Source: Clostridia bacterium
Lineage (GTDB): Bacteria > Bacillota > Clostridia > RGIG6154
Direction of reading: 5' to 3'
DNA length: 64,000 nucleotides
NCBI GenBank assembly: GCA_017410375.1
Contig: JAFQQW010000058.1
Location: forward strand, 9,192-73,191
Below the pieces are notes generated by a model. That model saw only the letters and a list, made by a program, of their open reading frames with translations, searched no databases and was not told the origin of the DNA. The first letter of the stretch is position 1, and every line of letters begins with the position of its first letter. Position numbers and translations under genes: made by a program. Below, one piece after another: positions 58,121-64,000 of the stretch.

Positions 58121-59278
58121 TTACTTTCCCTCTTTTACATCTTTAAACAGTTGTTTAAACTGCTCTGCTACTCTTTCTTTTGAATATATTTCTTCTGTCG
58201 CTTTTCTTGCATTTTTGCCCATCTCAAGGCGTTTTTCCTTGTTTTCATACAAATCCAGCACACAGGATGCAATGTCCTTTGCGGTTAAGCTTTCGGGACA
58301 AACCCCTGCATTGTTGTTTATCACGGTATTGTAAAGGTCATTGTCTTTGTTACAAACCGCAAGTATCGGCATACCGCAAGCCATCATGTTGAACGTTTTG
58401 CTGGGCATAAAAAGTTCCGACATTTTATCTTCCTGGGAAACCAAGCCCACATCCCCCGACGCCATAGACATCTGAAAAACATCTTCAGGCTGGTGCGGTA
58501 ACAGTTTTACATTTTCAGCACCATTATCTATTGCCGCCTGCACAAAATCGCAACCGGGACCTTTGCCGATAAACAAAAACAGAATATCTTTTTTATCTTC
58601 CAACGCATTAGCCGATTCCAAAAGAAGCGGAATGTTGTGTCCTAAGCCCAGCTTCCCCGAATACAGCACAACGAATTTTCCCTCTAATCCCTGCTCTTTG
58701 ATGAAGCGGTTTTCTTCTTTTGGGATAGGCTTCATAAAATCAGGGTCGCAAGGATACGGAATCACTGCAATATCCTGCTTTTTCTTTAGTGGCTTGTTGA
58801 TGCTTTTGGCCATTACTTCACCTAATGTCACAATTTTATCAATTTTCGGGAAAGTGCGATTGTTTAAAAAATGCCACCCTTTACAAATCAAATGCACAAC
58901 GGGATTGCCTGTGCTTTTTTCCACCACATGCGGATAAATATCCCAGTTCATAAAAACAAATTTAGATTTGGTCTTTTTCTTACACCACACACCAAGCAAA
59001 CTGTTAATGGGCGGATTGGAAGTAGCATACACCAAATCAAATTGCATATTTTTATTCTGCTTCATAAATTTACGCACATCTTTGCGGTACTTTATCCAGC
59101 AAATAAAACGACTTTTTAACGAGCGAGGGTCATGGGGTGCTGTTTTATGAATTGTAATATTCGGCTGTTCTTTCGGTTCGCTGCCGGTTAAAAGATGCAC
59201 TTCGTCGCCCTCAAAAATTTTAGATAGTTGTTCTACCTCATCAGAACCTAGGTTCTGATTCAACACAAGAACTCTCAT
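58121..59278 (-). CDS. glycosyltransferase family 4 (GT-B)
   Basis: GT4-like C-terminal domain (FMPSKTFNMMACGMPIL). Confidence 0.75.
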   Translation of the reverse strand: MRVLVLNQNLGSDEVEQLSKIFEGDEVHLLTGSEPKEQPNITIHKTAPHDPRSLKSRFICWIKYRKDVRKFMKQNKNMQFDLVYATSNPPINSLLGVWCKKKTKSKFVFMNWDIYPHVVEKSTGNPVVHLICKGWHFLNNRTFPKIDKIVTLGEVMAKSINKPLKKKQDIAVIPYPCDPDFMKPIPKEENRFIKEQGLEGKFVVLYSGKLGLGHNIPLLLESANALEDKKDILFLFIGKGPGCDFVQAAIDNGAENVKLLPHQPEDVFQMSMASGDVGLVSQEDKMSELFMPSKTFNMMACGMPILAVCNKDNDLYNTVINNNAGVCPESLTAKDIASCVLDLYENKEKRLEMGKNARKATEEIYSKERVAEQFKQLFKDVKEGK

Positions 59279-59299
59279 AATTTATCCCACTTTTCTTTT

Positions 59300-60571
59300 T
59301 TATACTTTATCCTCGTTAATTGCCGTCTGATATTTTCCGTTTTTTCCGAGTGCTATATCTTCAACTTGTTCCAGAACAAATTCACCTGCACCAAAGCAAT
59401 CTCTTAAACGATCTAAAAGCTGTTCCCGGTCTGATTCCTCAATTCTGCCAACATATTTTAAAATATAAACATAATTTTTCTTTTGTACCATCTGATACTT
59501 TACGATGCCGGTAAACGGTTCTGTAACCGCCGCCATCATCACATTGCTTACAGCTCTGCCATCTGTTGCAGTTAACTGTCCTGCAACACGCCCGTGCAGT
59601 TGTTCCAATGTTGTAATGGCTCCGCGTTCCTCCAAAGAAACACCCAAGTCGCCCGTGTCGTACCGAATCAACGGCATTGCGCGATTATATAAATCCGTAA
59701 GAACAATTCGTCCGATTTCGCCCGACTCTACAGGTTCATCCGAATCAAGCTTCAGAATTTCAAAATAAATACTTGCCGTATTCAAATATAGCTTCTCTTC
59801 ATACGCCTTTGTAATGCCAAACAAACCGTTCTCTTCGTTGTCATAGCGATTAAAAACAGGACATTCAAAGGCCTGCTCCAGATTCCTTTTAAGCTGTATG
59901 GACAGCATATCCGAATCACATACAATCAATTTAACTTTAAATGCTTTACAATCTATCTTTTCACGTTGTATAAACAGCAGAAACTCTTTCATCGCAGACG
60001 CATAGCCAAACAAAACGCATTTTTTGTGTTTTTTCAGATACAACGCAAGCTCTTTTTTCTTTGCATCATCAAAAGTGGCGATGTTTACATTATAAACATT
60101 CTGCATAAAAGACTTTAGTTTAGACTGCTTATAATTGCTCACCCAGTTCCGGATAAATATGTATTTTGTGCCTAGTTTCCAGCCTATCCGGTTATGACAA
60201 TATACTAAATCACAAACTGTTCGGTTTCGTTTTTCAGCGTTCTGCACCACTTTAAAGGGTGTGCCGGTTGAACCACTGGTATACACCGTGTGTAAGTTTT
60301 GTCCTTCAAATTCATCCGAAAGAAACTCTGTTTCTGCTTTTTCACGGAATTTTAATTTTGTCATAACAGGAAATTCGGACAACTCCGGTGATTTTATATT
60401 CTTATAATAGGGAACATGTGCTATTGTATACTGTAATATTGCTTTTAGTCTGTCCTGTCTTACTAACCCCTGATGTATTGCAATATCTTTATAGCATTTT
60501 CGCTTTTTCCCTTTTCCTAATACAAAATCAGACACCCAGAAACCTGCGTTTCTGAACCATGCACCGAACAT
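59300..60571 (-). CDS. phenylacetate-CoA ligase / F390 synthetase family adenylate-forming enzyme (CapK-like)
   Basis: YTSGSTGTPFKV AMP-binding motif; length and layout of PaaK/CapK. Confidence 0.75.
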   Translation of the reverse strand: MFGAWFRNAGFWVSDFVLGKGKKRKCYKDIAIHQGLVRQDRLKAILQYTIAHVPYYKNIKSPELSEFPVMTKLKFREKAETEFLSDEFEGQNLHTVYTSGSTGTPFKVVQNAEKRNRTVCDLVYCHNRIGWKLGTKYIFIRNWVSNYKQSKLKSFMQNVYNVNIATFDDAKKKELALYLKKHKKCVLFGYASAMKEFLLFIQREKIDCKAFKVKLIVCDSDMLSIQLKRNLEQAFECPVFNRYDNEENGLFGITKAYEEKLYLNTASIYFEILKLDSDEPVESGEIGRIVLTDLYNRAMPLIRYDTGDLGVSLEERGAITTLEQLHGRVAGQLTATDGRAVSNVMMAAVTEPFTGIVKYQMVQKKNYVYILKYVGRIEESDREQLLDRLRDCFGAGEFVLEQVEDIALGKNGKYQTAINEDKV

Positions 60572-60572
60572 A

Positions 60573-61535
60573 TTATAACCTCCGAATCATCACTTCGTTA
60601 TATTTCATCATATAGATGCCTTCATCATAGGCACCGATATTTTTCTTGTTTTGGATGCCGTGGATGTTGTTCTGAATGAGCGTCATGTGGTCGCATCCGC
60701 TTTCATAAGCGTGGGGATAACCGCCGCCGAAACGGGGATTGACCTCTGAAATGTAATACGCACCGTCCACATCAAAAACGTCAATATCAATCTGTCCGCT
60801 GTAGCCTGCTTTTTTCACGAAATCCTCAATGAGTGCAAACAGCTTTTCATCCTTGAAGGATACCGCCTTATCGGTCTCCCCTGCACGCATGAGTAACTTT
60901 TTCTTGGTGAAAATGGACACAATCTCGCCCGACAGCATATCAATATACACATCCGCGCCGATTTCCTGTCCGTCCATAAATTCCTGAATCATCAGTCCCT
61001 CGTGATGTGCAAAGAGATTCTCTACCGTCTCCTTGTCATACACCTTGGAAATGGTTATACTGGCAGAACCGCAAATGGGCTTTACAAACACGGGATACTT
61101 TGCTTTTCCCGCTTCCACTTCCTTAAAGAACTCTTCTTTGTCAATATAGCTTTTGGCACAGTTATAGCCGTTATCCCGAAGCCATACATACATATCCCAT
61201 TTGTTTAAAGACATTTCGCAAAGCTCGTAAGAAGAACCTACCACCGTAACACCCAATTCTTTAAACTTGTCCTTATGCTGAGCAAGCAAAGAAAGCTCGG
61301 GGTCAATAAGGGTTAAAACCGCGTCAATCTCTTCTTTTTTGCAGATATCAAAAATAATGTCTATGTAGCCATCTTCTGTCATACGGGGCACCTGATAGAA
61401 CTTGTCCGCCTCATGCACCGCAGGCGCTAAATTGGTCATATCGGTCGCAACAACTTTGCCGTTGTTGCCTACCGTCCGTTTAAAATACTGCACCACTTTA
61501 TCCCGGGTGCCTGCACTTAAAATCAAAATATTCAT
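60573..61535 (-). CDS. ATP-grasp domain protein (amino-acid/carboxylate ligase, CPSase-like)
   Basis: ATP-grasp B/C-domain pattern (YPVFVKP...GSAS...EVNPRFGGG). Confidence 0.75.
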   Translation of the reverse strand: MNILILSAGTRDKVVQYFKRTVGNNGKVVATDMTNLAPAVHEADKFYQVPRMTEDGYIDIIFDICKKEEIDAVLTLIDPELSLLAQHKDKFKELGVTVVGSSYELCEMSLNKWDMYVWLRDNGYNCAKSYIDKEEFFKEVEAGKAKYPVFVKPICGSASITISKVYDKETVENLFAHHEGLMIQEFMDGQEIGADVYIDMLSGEIVSIFTKKKLLMRAGETDKAVSFKDEKLFALIEDFVKKAGYSGQIDIDVFDVDGAYYISEVNPRFGGGYPHAYESGCDHMTLIQNNIHGIQNKKNIGAYDEGIYMMKYNEVMIRRL

Positions 61536-61538
61536 ACC

Positions 61539-62198
61539 TTACACCTTTTCCTTTTCCAGCTCAGCTTTTCGGATTTGTGCAAAATTGCCTTCGGTGGCAT
61601 TGGTGTTTTCCGAAATGTCACTGCGCTTTAACACCTTCATTGCGGTCATAAAGATAATTTTGATGTCCATCCACATGCTGATGTTTTGCACATATTCCAC
61701 GTCCAGCTTAAAACGATCCTCCCAGTTCACGCTGTTTCTGCCGTTCACCTGCGCCCATCCGGTAAGACCGGGACGCACATCGTGCCGATGGCGTTCGGTT
61801 TCGTTGTACCAGGGCAGGTATTCCACCAACAAAGGTCTCGGACCTACAATGGAGATATCGCCTTTTAAGATGTTAATTAAAGAGGGCAACTCATCGCATG
61901 AAGTCGAACGTAAAAATTTGCCATACTTATTCAGGCGCACCTCGTCGGGCAGGAGATTGCCGTCTTTATCTTTGGCATTGGACATGGTGCGGAATTTTAA
62001 AAGCTTAAAAATCTTTTCCTCACCGGTCTTTTTATCAATTTTACCGGGTCGCATTTGGGTAAAGAACGGATTTCCGCGCATAGCAATGGCACCGACAATC
62101 GTAAAAATCAACAGAAACGGCGACAAACACACCAGTGCGATAAAAGAAAGCAAAATATCCAAAAATCGTTTAAAAAACTTTGCGTACAAACTGAACAC
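61539..62198 (-). CDS. undecaprenyl-phosphate sugar phosphotransferase, small PglC/WecP-like initiating transferase
   Basis: Single N-terminal TM then the Bac_transf core (DELPSLINILKGDISIVGPRP). Confidence 0.85.
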   Translation of the reverse strand: MFSLYAKFFKRFLDILLSFIALVCLSPFLLIFTIVGAIAMRGNPFFTQMRPGKIDKKTGEEKIFKLLKFRTMSNAKDKDGNLLPDEVRLNKYGKFLRSTSCDELPSLINILKGDISIVGPRPLLVEYLPWYNETERHRHDVRPGLTGWAQVNGRNSVNWEDRFKLDVEYVQNISMWMDIKIIFMTAMKVLKRSDISENTNATEGNFAQIRKAELEKEKV

Positions 62199-62203
62199 TC
62201 CTC

Positions 62204-63451
62204 TTATTCAAAACAGCTTCTGATGATTTCAATCACAACATCCTGCTCCTGCTCTGTCATACGGATATCGCTGGGCAAGCACAGACCACGATGGAAAATA
62301 TCCTCGCCCACTTCAGAATAGTCGCCCGATGCAATGTAGGCATTGGTACGGCATCTGCCGTCGCCCGTCGCGGTTACATAGGGATTCATGCGGAAGATGG
62401 GTTGCATATGCATGGGCTTCCAGATGGGTCTGCCCTCTGCATTGTATTTGGCAAGTGCCTCTAAAATTTCTGTGGGACAGCTTTTTCCGCTTTCGGGAAT
62501 GAAAAGTGCCTCGCTGTCACTTCTGACCTGCTTGCACATAGCATCTTCGTCAATCAAAAGGCAGGACAGCCAGAAGTTCGGTTCGCATTCTTCGGGATTA
62601 TAGGGATTCATCGAAACGGGCAAATCCTTTAATCCCTCTTTGTAGCGCATATAAATTGCCTTTTTCTTGGCAATATGTTCTTCCAAGTACGGAAGCTGAC
62701 CGCGTACAACCCCCGCAATCACGTTGGACATGCGGTAATTGTAGCCGATTTCCTCATGCTGATACCAGGGTGCATTCTCACGGCTCTGGGTAGACCATTT
62801 GCGCGCACGGTTTGCCGCTTCCAAATCGTCGGTTAAGAGCATACCGCCCGAAGAGCCGGTTATAATTTTGTTGCCGTTAAAGCTGATGGCATTATATGTA
62901 CCGAATGTACCTGTCTGCACACCCTTATAAGAAGCACCAAAGGATTCTGCCGCGTCCTCAATTAAAATTGCACCGTGCTTTTCACAGACTGCCTTGATTT
63001 CATCCATTTTGGCAGGTGTGCCATATAGGTTTACGCTCACAACCACCTTTACATCCGGATACATCTCAAAGGCTTTTTCCAACGCCACCGGGTCCATGTT
63101 CCAGGTATCCCGTTCCGAATCAATAAATATCGGGATGCCCCCCTCATACACAACCGGGTTTACGGTTGCACTGAAAGTCATGTCCGAGCAGAACACATAA
63201 TCGCCTTTTTTAATGCCTGCAAGCTTCATGCAAAGGTGCAGTGCCGCAGTTCCGGCAGACAAAGCCACTGCATACTTGCAACCGATTTTTTCTGCCGCAA
63301 GGCGTTCCACCTCATTGATATTCTTGCCAACCGTAGACATCCAGTTGGTTTCGTACGCCTCTGTCACATATTGAATCTCTTCGCCGTGCATGCATGGCGA
63401 AGCAAGCCAGATTCGATTTTCGAACGGCTTGAACGCTTTTGTATGTGCCAT
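62204..63451 (-). CDS. DegT/DnrJ/EryC1/StrS-family PLP-dependent sugar aminotransferase
   Basis: Fold-type I aminotransferase with SxNGNK(I/L) lysine region (ISFNGNKIIT); first gene of the operon, GGGGG RBS. Confidence 0.9.
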   Translation of the reverse strand: MAHTKAFKPFENRIWLASPCMHGEEIQYVTEAYETNWMSTVGKNINEVERLAAEKIGCKYAVALSAGTAALHLCMKLAGIKKGDYVFCSDMTFSATVNPVVYEGGIPIFIDSERDTWNMDPVALEKAFEMYPDVKVVVSVNLYGTPAKMDEIKAVCEKHGAILIEDAAESFGASYKGVQTGTFGTYNAISFNGNKIITGSSGGMLLTDDLEAANRARKWSTQSRENAPWYQHEEIGYNYRMSNVIAGVVRGQLPYLEEHIAKKKAIYMRYKEGLKDLPVSMNPYNPEECEPNFWLSCLLIDEDAMCKQVRSDSEALFIPESGKSCPTEILEALAKYNAEGRPIWKPMHMQPIFRMNPYVTATGDGRCRTNAYIASGDYSEVGEDIFHRGLCLPSDIRMTEQEQDVVIEIIRSCFE

Positions 63452-63523
63452 ACTTTACCCCCCATATGGTCAATTTTTAAATTTCGCACTTATATATGTA
63501 AAAACACATGATTATTCTTTATA

Positions 63524-63552
63524 ATTATATCACGAAGCAGTATCTTTGTCAA
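63524..63552 (-). promoter_or_regulatory. perfect consensus sigma-A promoter TTGACA-17-TATAAT driving the polysaccharide operon
   Basis: -35 at 63547-63552 and -10 at 63524-63529 on the minus strand; leader of about 65 nt to the DegT start. Confidence 0.6.
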
Positions 63553-63596
63553 CGTATTTTCTATCCCTCTTTTCGGTCAAAAAGCCTCTTTTTTTG

Positions 63597-64000
63597 ACAT
63601 CTGAAGCGTTCCGCCCATTCATACAATGTAGGGCAGGGGCTTGCTCCTGCCGAAAAAGGCGAAATGATACGCAGGTACTTCCCTACAAGACGTTAATTTG
63701 ACATCTGAAGCGTTCTGCCCATTCATACAATGTAGGGCAGGGGCTTGCTCCTGCCGAAAAAGGCGGAACGAGCAAGCCCGTTCCCTACAAGATTGTAATA
63801 AAACAACTTTGTGCTTGCAAATTTTGTTAAATTGCAGCAAAATTCAATTGCAGAGAAGCAGCTGTGCGAAATGATACGTAGGTGCTTCCCTGCAAGACGT
63901 TAATTTGACATCTGAAGCGTTCTGCCCATTCATACAATGTAGGGCAGGGGCTTGCTCCTGCCGAAAAAGGCGGAACGAGCAAGCCCGTTCTCTACAAGAT
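63597..64000. repeat. tandem long-palindrome repeats of about 100 bp (three or more copies, one with an internal deletion of about 120 bp), running off the window edge
   Basis: Unit GACATCTGAAGCGTTCTGCCCATTCATACAATGTAGGGCAGGGGCTTGCTC...GAGCAAGCCCGTTCCCTACAAG at 63597, 63700 and 63907. Confidence 0.7.

Follow-up and report, generated by a model that had tools for sequence, protein, structure and literature searches.

A probable cluster of GTAG-tagged REP elements upstream of a polysaccharide operon in Clostridia, and in-frame REP pairs in the genes of its transposase family

The window analyzed here is a stretch of 64,000 nucleotides from a Clostridia bacterium (lineage RGIG6154; GenBank assembly GCA_017410375.1, contig JAFQQW010000058.1, positions 9,192–73,191 of the forward strand). 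A tandem array of hairpin-forming repeats lies at its right-hand end, upstream of a minus-strand operon that opens with a DegT-family aminotransferase gene. From its sequence, we identify this array, with a probability of roughly 0.85, as a cluster of GTAG-tagged repetitive extragenic palindromic (REP) elements, which resembles bacterial interspersed mosaic elements (BIMEs) and REP doublets forming hairpins (REPINs), and which was reiterated together with local flanking DNA. We established the hairpin architecture of the units, their membership in a large, dispersed, and mostly extragenic family of the Clostridia, the association of this family with REP-associated tyrosine transposase (RAYT)-type genes of the Y1 (HUH) class, and the strain polymorphism of the array at the REP edges. 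To our knowledge, nearly all work on GTAG REPs and RAYTs concerns Proteobacteria, and GTAG REPs are hardly described in the phylum to which the Clostridia belong. The locus itself is ordinary; its interest lies in the family and in the in-frame REP pairs found inside the transposase genes.

Architecture of the array

The array consists of three direct copies, which start with the 33-mer GACATCTGAAGCGTTC[C/T]GCCCATTCATACAATG at 63596, 63700, and 63907. The left arm of the palindrome, the 26-mer TGTAGGGCAGGGGCTTGCTCCTGCCG, follows at 63627, 63731, and 63938. Neither oligomer has further copies elsewhere in the window, and the number of copies expected by chance was 0 in 100 shuffles. A first-pass annotation of the window, made from the letters alone, had correctly seen at least three tandem units upstream of the operon promoter, but it took the unit to be about 100 bp long. 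Alignment gave a period of 207 bp and copy lengths of 104, 207, and 132 bp; the shorter size applies to copy 1 alone.

The full unit contains two REP types as an inverted pair (Table 1). R1 (24 nt) reads GTAG-GGCAGGGG-CTTG-CTCCTGCC on the plus strand, with a GTAG head, an 8-bp stem, and a 4-nt loop. R2 (24 nt) has the same build on the minus strand (GTAG-GGAACGGG-CTTG-CTCGTTCC), and each of the two folds alone as an 8-bp stem. Where the stems of R1 and R2 diverge, the changes are paired, which suggests that each hairpin is under selection by itself. The inverted arms of copies 2 and 3 are 26 nt long, 85% complementary, and 7 nt apart. As single-stranded DNA (ssDNA), the R1–R2 pair folded into one long hairpin (-21.5 kcal/mol, z = -6.6). 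The long imperfect hairpin that had been ascribed to every unit was therefore recovered in copies 2 and 3, but not in copy 1. Relative to copy 1, copy 2 has an additional R2 and 77 bp between the spacer and a third element, R3. Having no counterpart of these 103 bp, copy 1 retains only the left palindrome arm and the decayed third hairpin, and R3 folds poorly now. The loss of an internal segment from copy 1 had been recognized earlier, although its size had been put at about 120 bp. Apart from this indel, four substitutions separate copies 1 and 2, and two separate copies 2 and 3. Copy 1 may be a deletion derivative or an ancestral R1 + R3 dimer, and duplication and deletion may have followed each other in either order.

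The locus could be extended with a 32.5-kb contig (L001; European Nucleotide Archive sample ERZ28018789), which encodes the DegT protein and has one mismatch to the window in 4 kb. There, the array ended at window-equivalent position 64038, only 38 bp past the window edge and after three units, rather than running on as had been supposed. The short copy-1 junction was reproduced in an independent contig (L128). The array of a second strain (L002, GCA_054267915.1) differs from that of the window by a 76-bp indel, which covers the interval between two successive R1 elements and leaves R1-AA-R1. All three indel boundaries seen in these comparisons (copy 1 versus copy 2, L002 versus the window) are REP edges. 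Within the array, contigs from two further assemblies break off. A REP array explains such breaks, and the copy number may be under-called on their account. Tandem Repeats Finder reported nothing for positions 62000–64000, because the indel between the copies defeats the program.

A dispersed family in Clostridia

Relatives were collected by scanning for the R1 20-mer TGTAGGGCAGGGGCTTGCTC, with each species represented by one genome, and the family statistics come from these loci. At least 120 stretches contained the exact 20-mer; about 90 genomes are represented, nearly all of them gut or rumen Clostridia, and several of these genomes had matches on several contigs. Among the matches listed, the carriers are Ruminococcus, Oscillospiraceae, Acutalibacteraceae, Faecousia, metagenome-assembled genomes (MAGs) labelled “Lachnospiraceae”, and the complete genome of Chakrabartyella piscis. 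The window and the other loci have only the 26-mer in common. Their flanks are unrelated, and the local sequence of the unit (segments a, b, and c) was absent from the other loci among the matches listed. A separate match at L034 (2496–2515), in a MAG labelled Flavobacteriales, has no closing hairpin half; it may be due to chance, mis-binning, or a fragment.

Stem and loop lengths were too variable for a single structure line, and control hexamers were therefore used to assess the hairpins of the family. A hairpin of at least 7 bp directly adjoined 151 of the 274 other, non-ascertained GTAGGG sites (55%), compared with 2–8% for 11 control hexamers. Pairing is preserved across more than 100 stem/loop variants, for example, CAGG/CCTG, CGGG/CCCG, AACG/CGTT, TTGG/CCAA, and AAGG/CCTT. 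Since these variants were selected for hairpin potential, it is the comparison with the control hexamers that carries the statistical weight. The elements are mostly extragenic: 8% of the REPs lie inside open reading frames (ORFs) of at least 300 amino acids (aa), as against 59% of random positions. Neighboring REPs were arranged head-to-head in 51 pairs, tail-to-tail in 24, and in tandem in 42. At distances above 1 kb from an ascertained copy, the density of REP-like elements is still about 1 per 13 kb. Other genomes likewise contain arrays in which a REP is tandemly repeated with its flank, at periods of 64 bp (L008), about 103 bp (L046), and 48 bp (L089).

R1/R2 doublets are present at L022, L027, L078, and L107, with spacers that differ from that of the window. 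The R1-AAAAAGG-R2 junction was absent from the other loci listed (n = 120) and from the metagenomes of the Joint Genome Institute (JGI), and the unit-specific junction CATACAATGTAGGGCAGGGG gave no match in the JGI metagenome scan. In viral contigs, R1 was found in three stretches among 2.9 million contigs, and this near-absence argues that the element is not phage-borne. Rfam 15, searched at permissive thresholds with the window end and the extended intergenic region, yielded sub-threshold chance matches only. A full-text literature search for the 24-mer found no paper.

The associated transposase family

About ten of the fetched loci carry a gene for a protein of approximately 165 aa, the best matches of which are RAYTs. 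The first probe was an E. coli RayT sequence; it served as a lead only, and its matches were then tested with Pfam, NCBIfam, the Protein Data Bank (PDB), and a fold search. The sole NCBIfam match of the protein was REP_Tyr_transpos (REP-associated tyrosine transposase, E = 3e-21), and its best sequence match in the PDB was E. coli TnpA-REP (4ER8). His82, His84, and Tyr148 are invariant in 88 sequences; the histidines belong to the HUH motif MPNHIH and the tyrosine to YIxxNP. The AlphaFold model (pLDDT, the predicted local distance difference test, 91.8) matched Y1 transposases in the fold search. There, 4ER8 gave the highest TM-score (0.62) and identity (22%), while IS608 and ISDra2 gave slightly better E-values. 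Sequence and predicted fold point to a RAYT-type family, with a Y1 HUH fold that appears nearer to TnpA-REP than to the TnpA of IS200. The family is large: 7991 of the 8000 candidates scored matched at E <= 1e-5, and there are 22,477 clusters at 50% identity.

In-frame REP pairs inside the transposase genes

The RAYT-type genes hold their own REP twice, in frame and in inverted orientation, about 140 nt apart and flanking the HUH motif. R1 is the REP concerned in the RAYT-like genes of L005, L041, L053, L054, L085, and L098. In the structural model, the forward copy, which encodes VGQGLAPA, would form the tip of a beta-hairpin after strand 1, and the reverse copy, which encodes AGASPCPT, would form the loop after the HUH strand.

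The six full genes, whose loci were ascertained through the reverse REP copy, encode proteins that are about 64–68% identical. Nucleotide identity was 98.6% in the REP columns versus 66.8% elsewhere. Codons of invariant amino acids were identical in all six genes at 14 of 14 positions in the REP columns, versus 9 of 54 elsewhere (Fisher p = 6.6e-9). In five genes, the forward copy was unmatched by the search 20-mer, yet four of these five are exact. The forward copy of L085 has a compensatory stem change (GGGAGGGG/CTCCTCCC), by which two amino acids are altered.

Other REPs were found at the same two positions in further genes. The gene of L121 contains GTAGGGGCGGCAACCTGCCGCCC (VGAATCRP/GRQVAAPT), and a dimer of the same type lies just downstream. 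P0177, encoded in L123, has the REP GTAGGGAACGGTCTTGACCGTTCC (VGNGLDRS/ERSRPFPT), whose outer stem is that of R2, and another copy is located upstream of the gene. Because R1 and an R2-like REP sit in these RAYT-like genes, R1 and R2 of the window appear to be the cognate REPs of two lineages of the RAYT-type family.

The encoded peptides follow the same pattern. Close homologs showed VGQGLAPA/AGASPCPT in 95 pairs, VGRGLAPA/AGASPRPT in 9, and a mixed combination in 1. Across lineages, the peptide pairs co-vary by the reverse-complement rule; VGEGLAPP/GGASPSPT is another example, and there are more than 20 pair types in all. When 144 diverse representatives were scored for an antisense-compatible pair flanking the HUH motif, 37 reached 8/8 and 13 reached 7/8 (50/144), whereas the unreversed control never exceeded 6/8. 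The transposase homologs P0127, P0151, P0185, P0187, P0199, and P0220 have at least three REP-coded peptides in a row (e.g., repeated VGEGLAPPA), which indicates repeated in-frame insertion of REPs into the same loops.

These comparisons essentially establish the existence of the in-gene REP pairs, and no earlier description of in-frame REP pairs in RAYT genes was found in the literature searched. It is a tentative proposal, which we rate below even odds, that they are functional rather than tolerated insertions and represent a previously undescribed variant of the REP–RAYT system. In-gene REPs could act as a site of autoregulation in cis, as a master copy that seeds the genomic REPs, or as a device that locks the protein to its target. 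The double constraint from hairpin and coding would be a plausible reason why one 24-mer stays identical across families of Clostridia.

Genetic surroundings

The DegT gene is followed by genes for a Bac_transf sugar transferase, an ATP-grasp enzyme, a CapK-like ligase, and several GT1 glycosyltransferases, and this minus-strand operon is a typical surface-polysaccharide locus. The promoter and the G-rich ribosome-binding site (RBS) of the operon had been read correctly in the first-pass annotation (Table 1). The stretch of 148 bp between the DegT start codon and the array, which comprises promoter and leader, is identical in the window and L002 (148/148). The DegT gene of L002 has 31 synonymous nucleotide differences, and the protein is identical. 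The gene order of the locus revealed no regulator gene adjoining the array. In a comparison of L002 2343–4475 with L001 8050–11464 (window ~58121–61535), the CapK-like gene (423 aa), which in the window has the ATP-grasp gene on one side and the first GT1 gene on the other, was missing from L002. The content of the polysaccharide operon thus differs between strains.

In L001, the intergenic region is 858 bp long and is bounded upstream by a co-directional gene of 1663 aa. A strong bidirectional terminator that belongs to this gene (AAAAAGCACCC...GGGTGCTTTTT) lies about 230 bp ahead of the array. The 1663-aa protein (L001 284–5275) has a signal-peptide-like N-terminus and no Pfam match on record.

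Only after copy 3, at window-equivalent 64022–64050, is there a complete divergent promoter (TTGCAA-17-TATACT, with TG); its TTGCAA -35 element is part of the reiterated flank. As TTGCAA is its own reverse complement, each segment b also provides TTGCAA-17-TACAAT toward the operon, reading into R2 (63792–63820 and window-equivalent 63999–64027, minus strand); at 9/12 positions, this is a consensus match only. The divergent promoter is followed by a non-coding stretch of about 160–250 nt (L001 5285–5563, minus strand; window-equivalent ~64022–64300, plus strand), which has three TTGCGACAC motifs and two terminator-like hairpins. It folds very stably (-102 kcal/mol, z = -10.7), gave no Rfam match, and is a candidate small RNA.

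Table 1. Features of the array, the operon start, and the RAYT-type genes. Positions refer to the window, unless a locus is named.
Feature	Position	Strand	Basis
Array copy 1, 104 bp: flank a, R1, 7-nt spacer, decayed R3, tail	63596–63699	+	Alignment; short form also in L128
Array copy 2, 207 bp, full unit: flank a, R1, spacer, inverted R2, segments b (TTGCAA) and c, decayed R3, tail	63700–63906	+	
Array copy 3, cut by the window edge; 132 bp in L001, followed by unique sequence	63907–64000	+	
103-bp segment of copy 2, missing from copy 1; its ends are the start of R2 and the start of R3	63764–63866		Alignment
REP R1 GTAGGGCAGGGGCTTGCTCCTGCC, copy 1	63628–63651	+	ssDNA hairpin, 8 bp
REP R1, copy 2	63732–63755	+	ssDNA hairpin fold
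REP R1, copy 3	63939–63962	+	
REP R2 GTAGGGAACGGGCTTGCTCGTTCC, inverted relative to R1, GTAG heads outside (head-to-head dimer, “long palindrome”)	63765–63788	-	
REP R2, second copy, head mutated to GTAGAG	63972–63995	-	
Decayed third REP R3 TGTAGGGAAGTACCTGCGTATCATTTCG, pairs with R1 in copy 1	63660–63687	-	Sequence; weak hairpin
R3 counterpart in copy 2, head mutated to GCAG	63867–63894		
TTGCAA hexamer (own reverse complement) in segment b, copy of the divergent promoter -35	63815–63820		
DegT/DnrJ/EryC1-family aminotransferase gene, operon gene 1	62204–63451	-	ORF; Pfam PF01041, E = 3.5e-82; gene order
RBS, G-rich, GGGGGG (plus-strand C run), 6 nt 5' of the DegT ATG	63458–63463	-	Sequence reading
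Sigma-70 promoter TTGACA-17-TATAAT, TG before the -10, drives the operon	63524–63552	-	12/12 consensus positions
RAYT-type genes with in-frame inverted REP pair	L053 6855–7352; L098 962–1471; L054 1400–1900; L041 5417–5908		
Further RAYT-type genes with in-frame inverted REP pair	L005 3926–4438; L085 3114–3602; L121 6264–6749; L123 3001–3507		

Alternative explanations

The first-pass annotation had offered three roles for the repeats. The closest of these was a satellite-like repeat, although the palindromes are actually REP elements. The other two were functional.

As an insulator or terminator stack, the array would block read-through, from the 1663-aa gene or from the array itself, before the operon promoter. 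On the operon strand, R2 is followed by GCCTTTTTCG, which a consensus scan flagged twice as terminator-like, and a 2013 survey reports effects of REPs elsewhere on termination and mRNA stability (PMC3733652). However, the T-run starts 3 nt after the R2 stem, within the 7-nt spacer that forms the loop of the full palindrome fold. No T-run follows the whole palindrome on either strand, and copy 1 contains no R2. What comes after the same 24-mer in other genomes is unrelated sequence that usually has no T-run. Since a proper U-tract is missing and a canonical bidirectional terminator already closes the upstream gene before the array, we consider this role very unlikely.

An equally improbable role is that of a regulator-binding platform, in which the units or the AT-rich dyad would be operators or activating sites for the operon or the divergent promoter. 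The array does lie between two divergent promoters, 44 bp upstream of the operon -35, and operators typically comprise repeated sites. Exopolysaccharide genes of Thauera are flanked by GTAG arrays, for which a modulating role has been suggested (PMC3733652). Nevertheless, what the units conserve is the REP core, and this core is present at more than 100 unrelated loci. The AT-rich dyad, to which a possible regulatory role had been attached, turned out to be the duplicated TTGCAA -35 region of the divergent promoter. The copy number and content of the array differ between close strains, the promoter is invariant, and there is no adjoining regulator gene.

An assembly artefact, in which collapsed or duplicated reads gave a false tandem repeat, would suit short-read metagenome assemblies, two more of which break here, but it is scarcely credible because the copies are non-identical (point changes and the 103-bp indel), the short junction recurs in the independent sample of L128, and the divergent strain L002 has a related but distinct array. 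The earlier concern that the repeats might be coding or artefactual was not borne out in either respect: the ORFs across the array are short, overlap on both strands, and none is supported. A CRISPR array was rejected, as the “spacers” are repeated along with the unit and the period is irregular, and an invertible promoter switch was rejected for want of an inverted partner beyond the operon promoter.

Proposed origin of the array

Several observations weigh against reading the array as a RAYT-related REP cluster with, at most, a side effect on expression. The RAYT-like proteins scored 75.7 bits, below the NCBIfam cut-off of 80, and they were weak on Pfam Y1_Tnp. The 64-kb window contains one REP cluster only, and tblastn found no RAYT gene in the window or in L001. 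The exact R1-spacer-R2 dimer was found at no other locus listed and not in the JGI metagenomes, and its movement as a unit is therefore not supported. Finally, TTTTT stands 3 nt after R2 on the operon strand, by which some terminator-like effect is possible.

We nevertheless favor a REP cluster, and its origin may be pictured as follows. The REPs would have been seeded by RAYT-catalyzed transposition of single-stranded DNA. Reiteration at a 207-bp period, about 2.6-fold, would then have copied the resulting hetero-dimer along with about 150 bp of local flank, including the decayed R3 and the -35 copy. Recombination, slippage, or RAYT-type cleavage and joining between REPs could have produced the tandem copies. 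At this locus, the array would be selfish or structural DNA between two divergent promoters, with a side effect on expression at most, and not an element devoted to termination, insulation, or operator function. We saw no evidence that the array is selected for regulation, and the promoter region is invariant between strains.

Comparison with known systems

A large and highly conserved REP family is now placed in gut and rumen Clostridia. The repeats of this locus need no special regulatory explanation, and an annotation as terminator or operator is unwarranted. If the in-gene REPs are functional, they would offer a direct handle on the co-evolution of a domesticated transposase and its target. 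The 2013 survey found GTAG REPs in Proteobacteria, Cyanobacteria, Chloroflexi, and the Planctomycetes–Verrucomicrobia–Chlamydiae (PVC) group, with Firmicutes not among them (PMC3733652). Group 1 RAYTs have been recorded in Clostridia by Bertels et al. 2017 (PMC5581495). That survey examined extragenic flanks only, and such a design would miss in-gene REPs.

The closest relatives are the GTAG-tagged REPs (Di Nocera, De Gregorio & Rocco 2013, PMC3733652; Nunvar et al. 2010, PMC2817692). They share with the present family a GTAG head beside a GC-rich stem of 6–13 bp with a short loop, sub-families with compensatory stem changes, a mostly extragenic location, and an association with RAYTs. The predominance of head-to-head dimers, and clusters that are dimers reiterated with flanking DNA, are further common traits in the same sources. 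The present family differs in its Clostridia host, the 2013 survey (PMC3733652) listing no Firmicutes. Most described GTAG REP families are species- or genus-specific, whereas the 24-mer found here is identical across many genera and families. Furthermore, the dimer consists of two different REP types, and the cognate transposase genes carry REPs inside their coding sequence, not only in their flanks.

With the BIMEs of E. coli, the array has in common the alternating REP orientation, tandem amplification, and strain-variable copy number, in line with established knowledge and PMC2817692. Unlike in BIMEs, no conserved inter-REP linker motifs and no sites for integration host factor (IHF) or gyrase were identified here, and the reiterated unit of 207 bp includes local non-REP DNA. 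REPINs (Bertels & Rainey 2011, PMC3116915) likewise consist of two inverted REPs with a short spacer that form one long hairpin as ssDNA. The REPIN doublet, however, replicates as a unit (PMC3116915), while the halves of the dimer found here come from different REP lineages and its R1-spacer-R2 arrangement was found at this locus alone. The transposases resemble TnpA-REP (4ER8) and the TnpA proteins of IS200/IS605 in the HUH motif, the tyrosine of YIxxNP, and the Y1-transposase fold. They differ from TnpA-REP in sequence, at approximately 22% identity, and in two surface segments for which an inverted pair of the cognate REP supplies the coding sequence.

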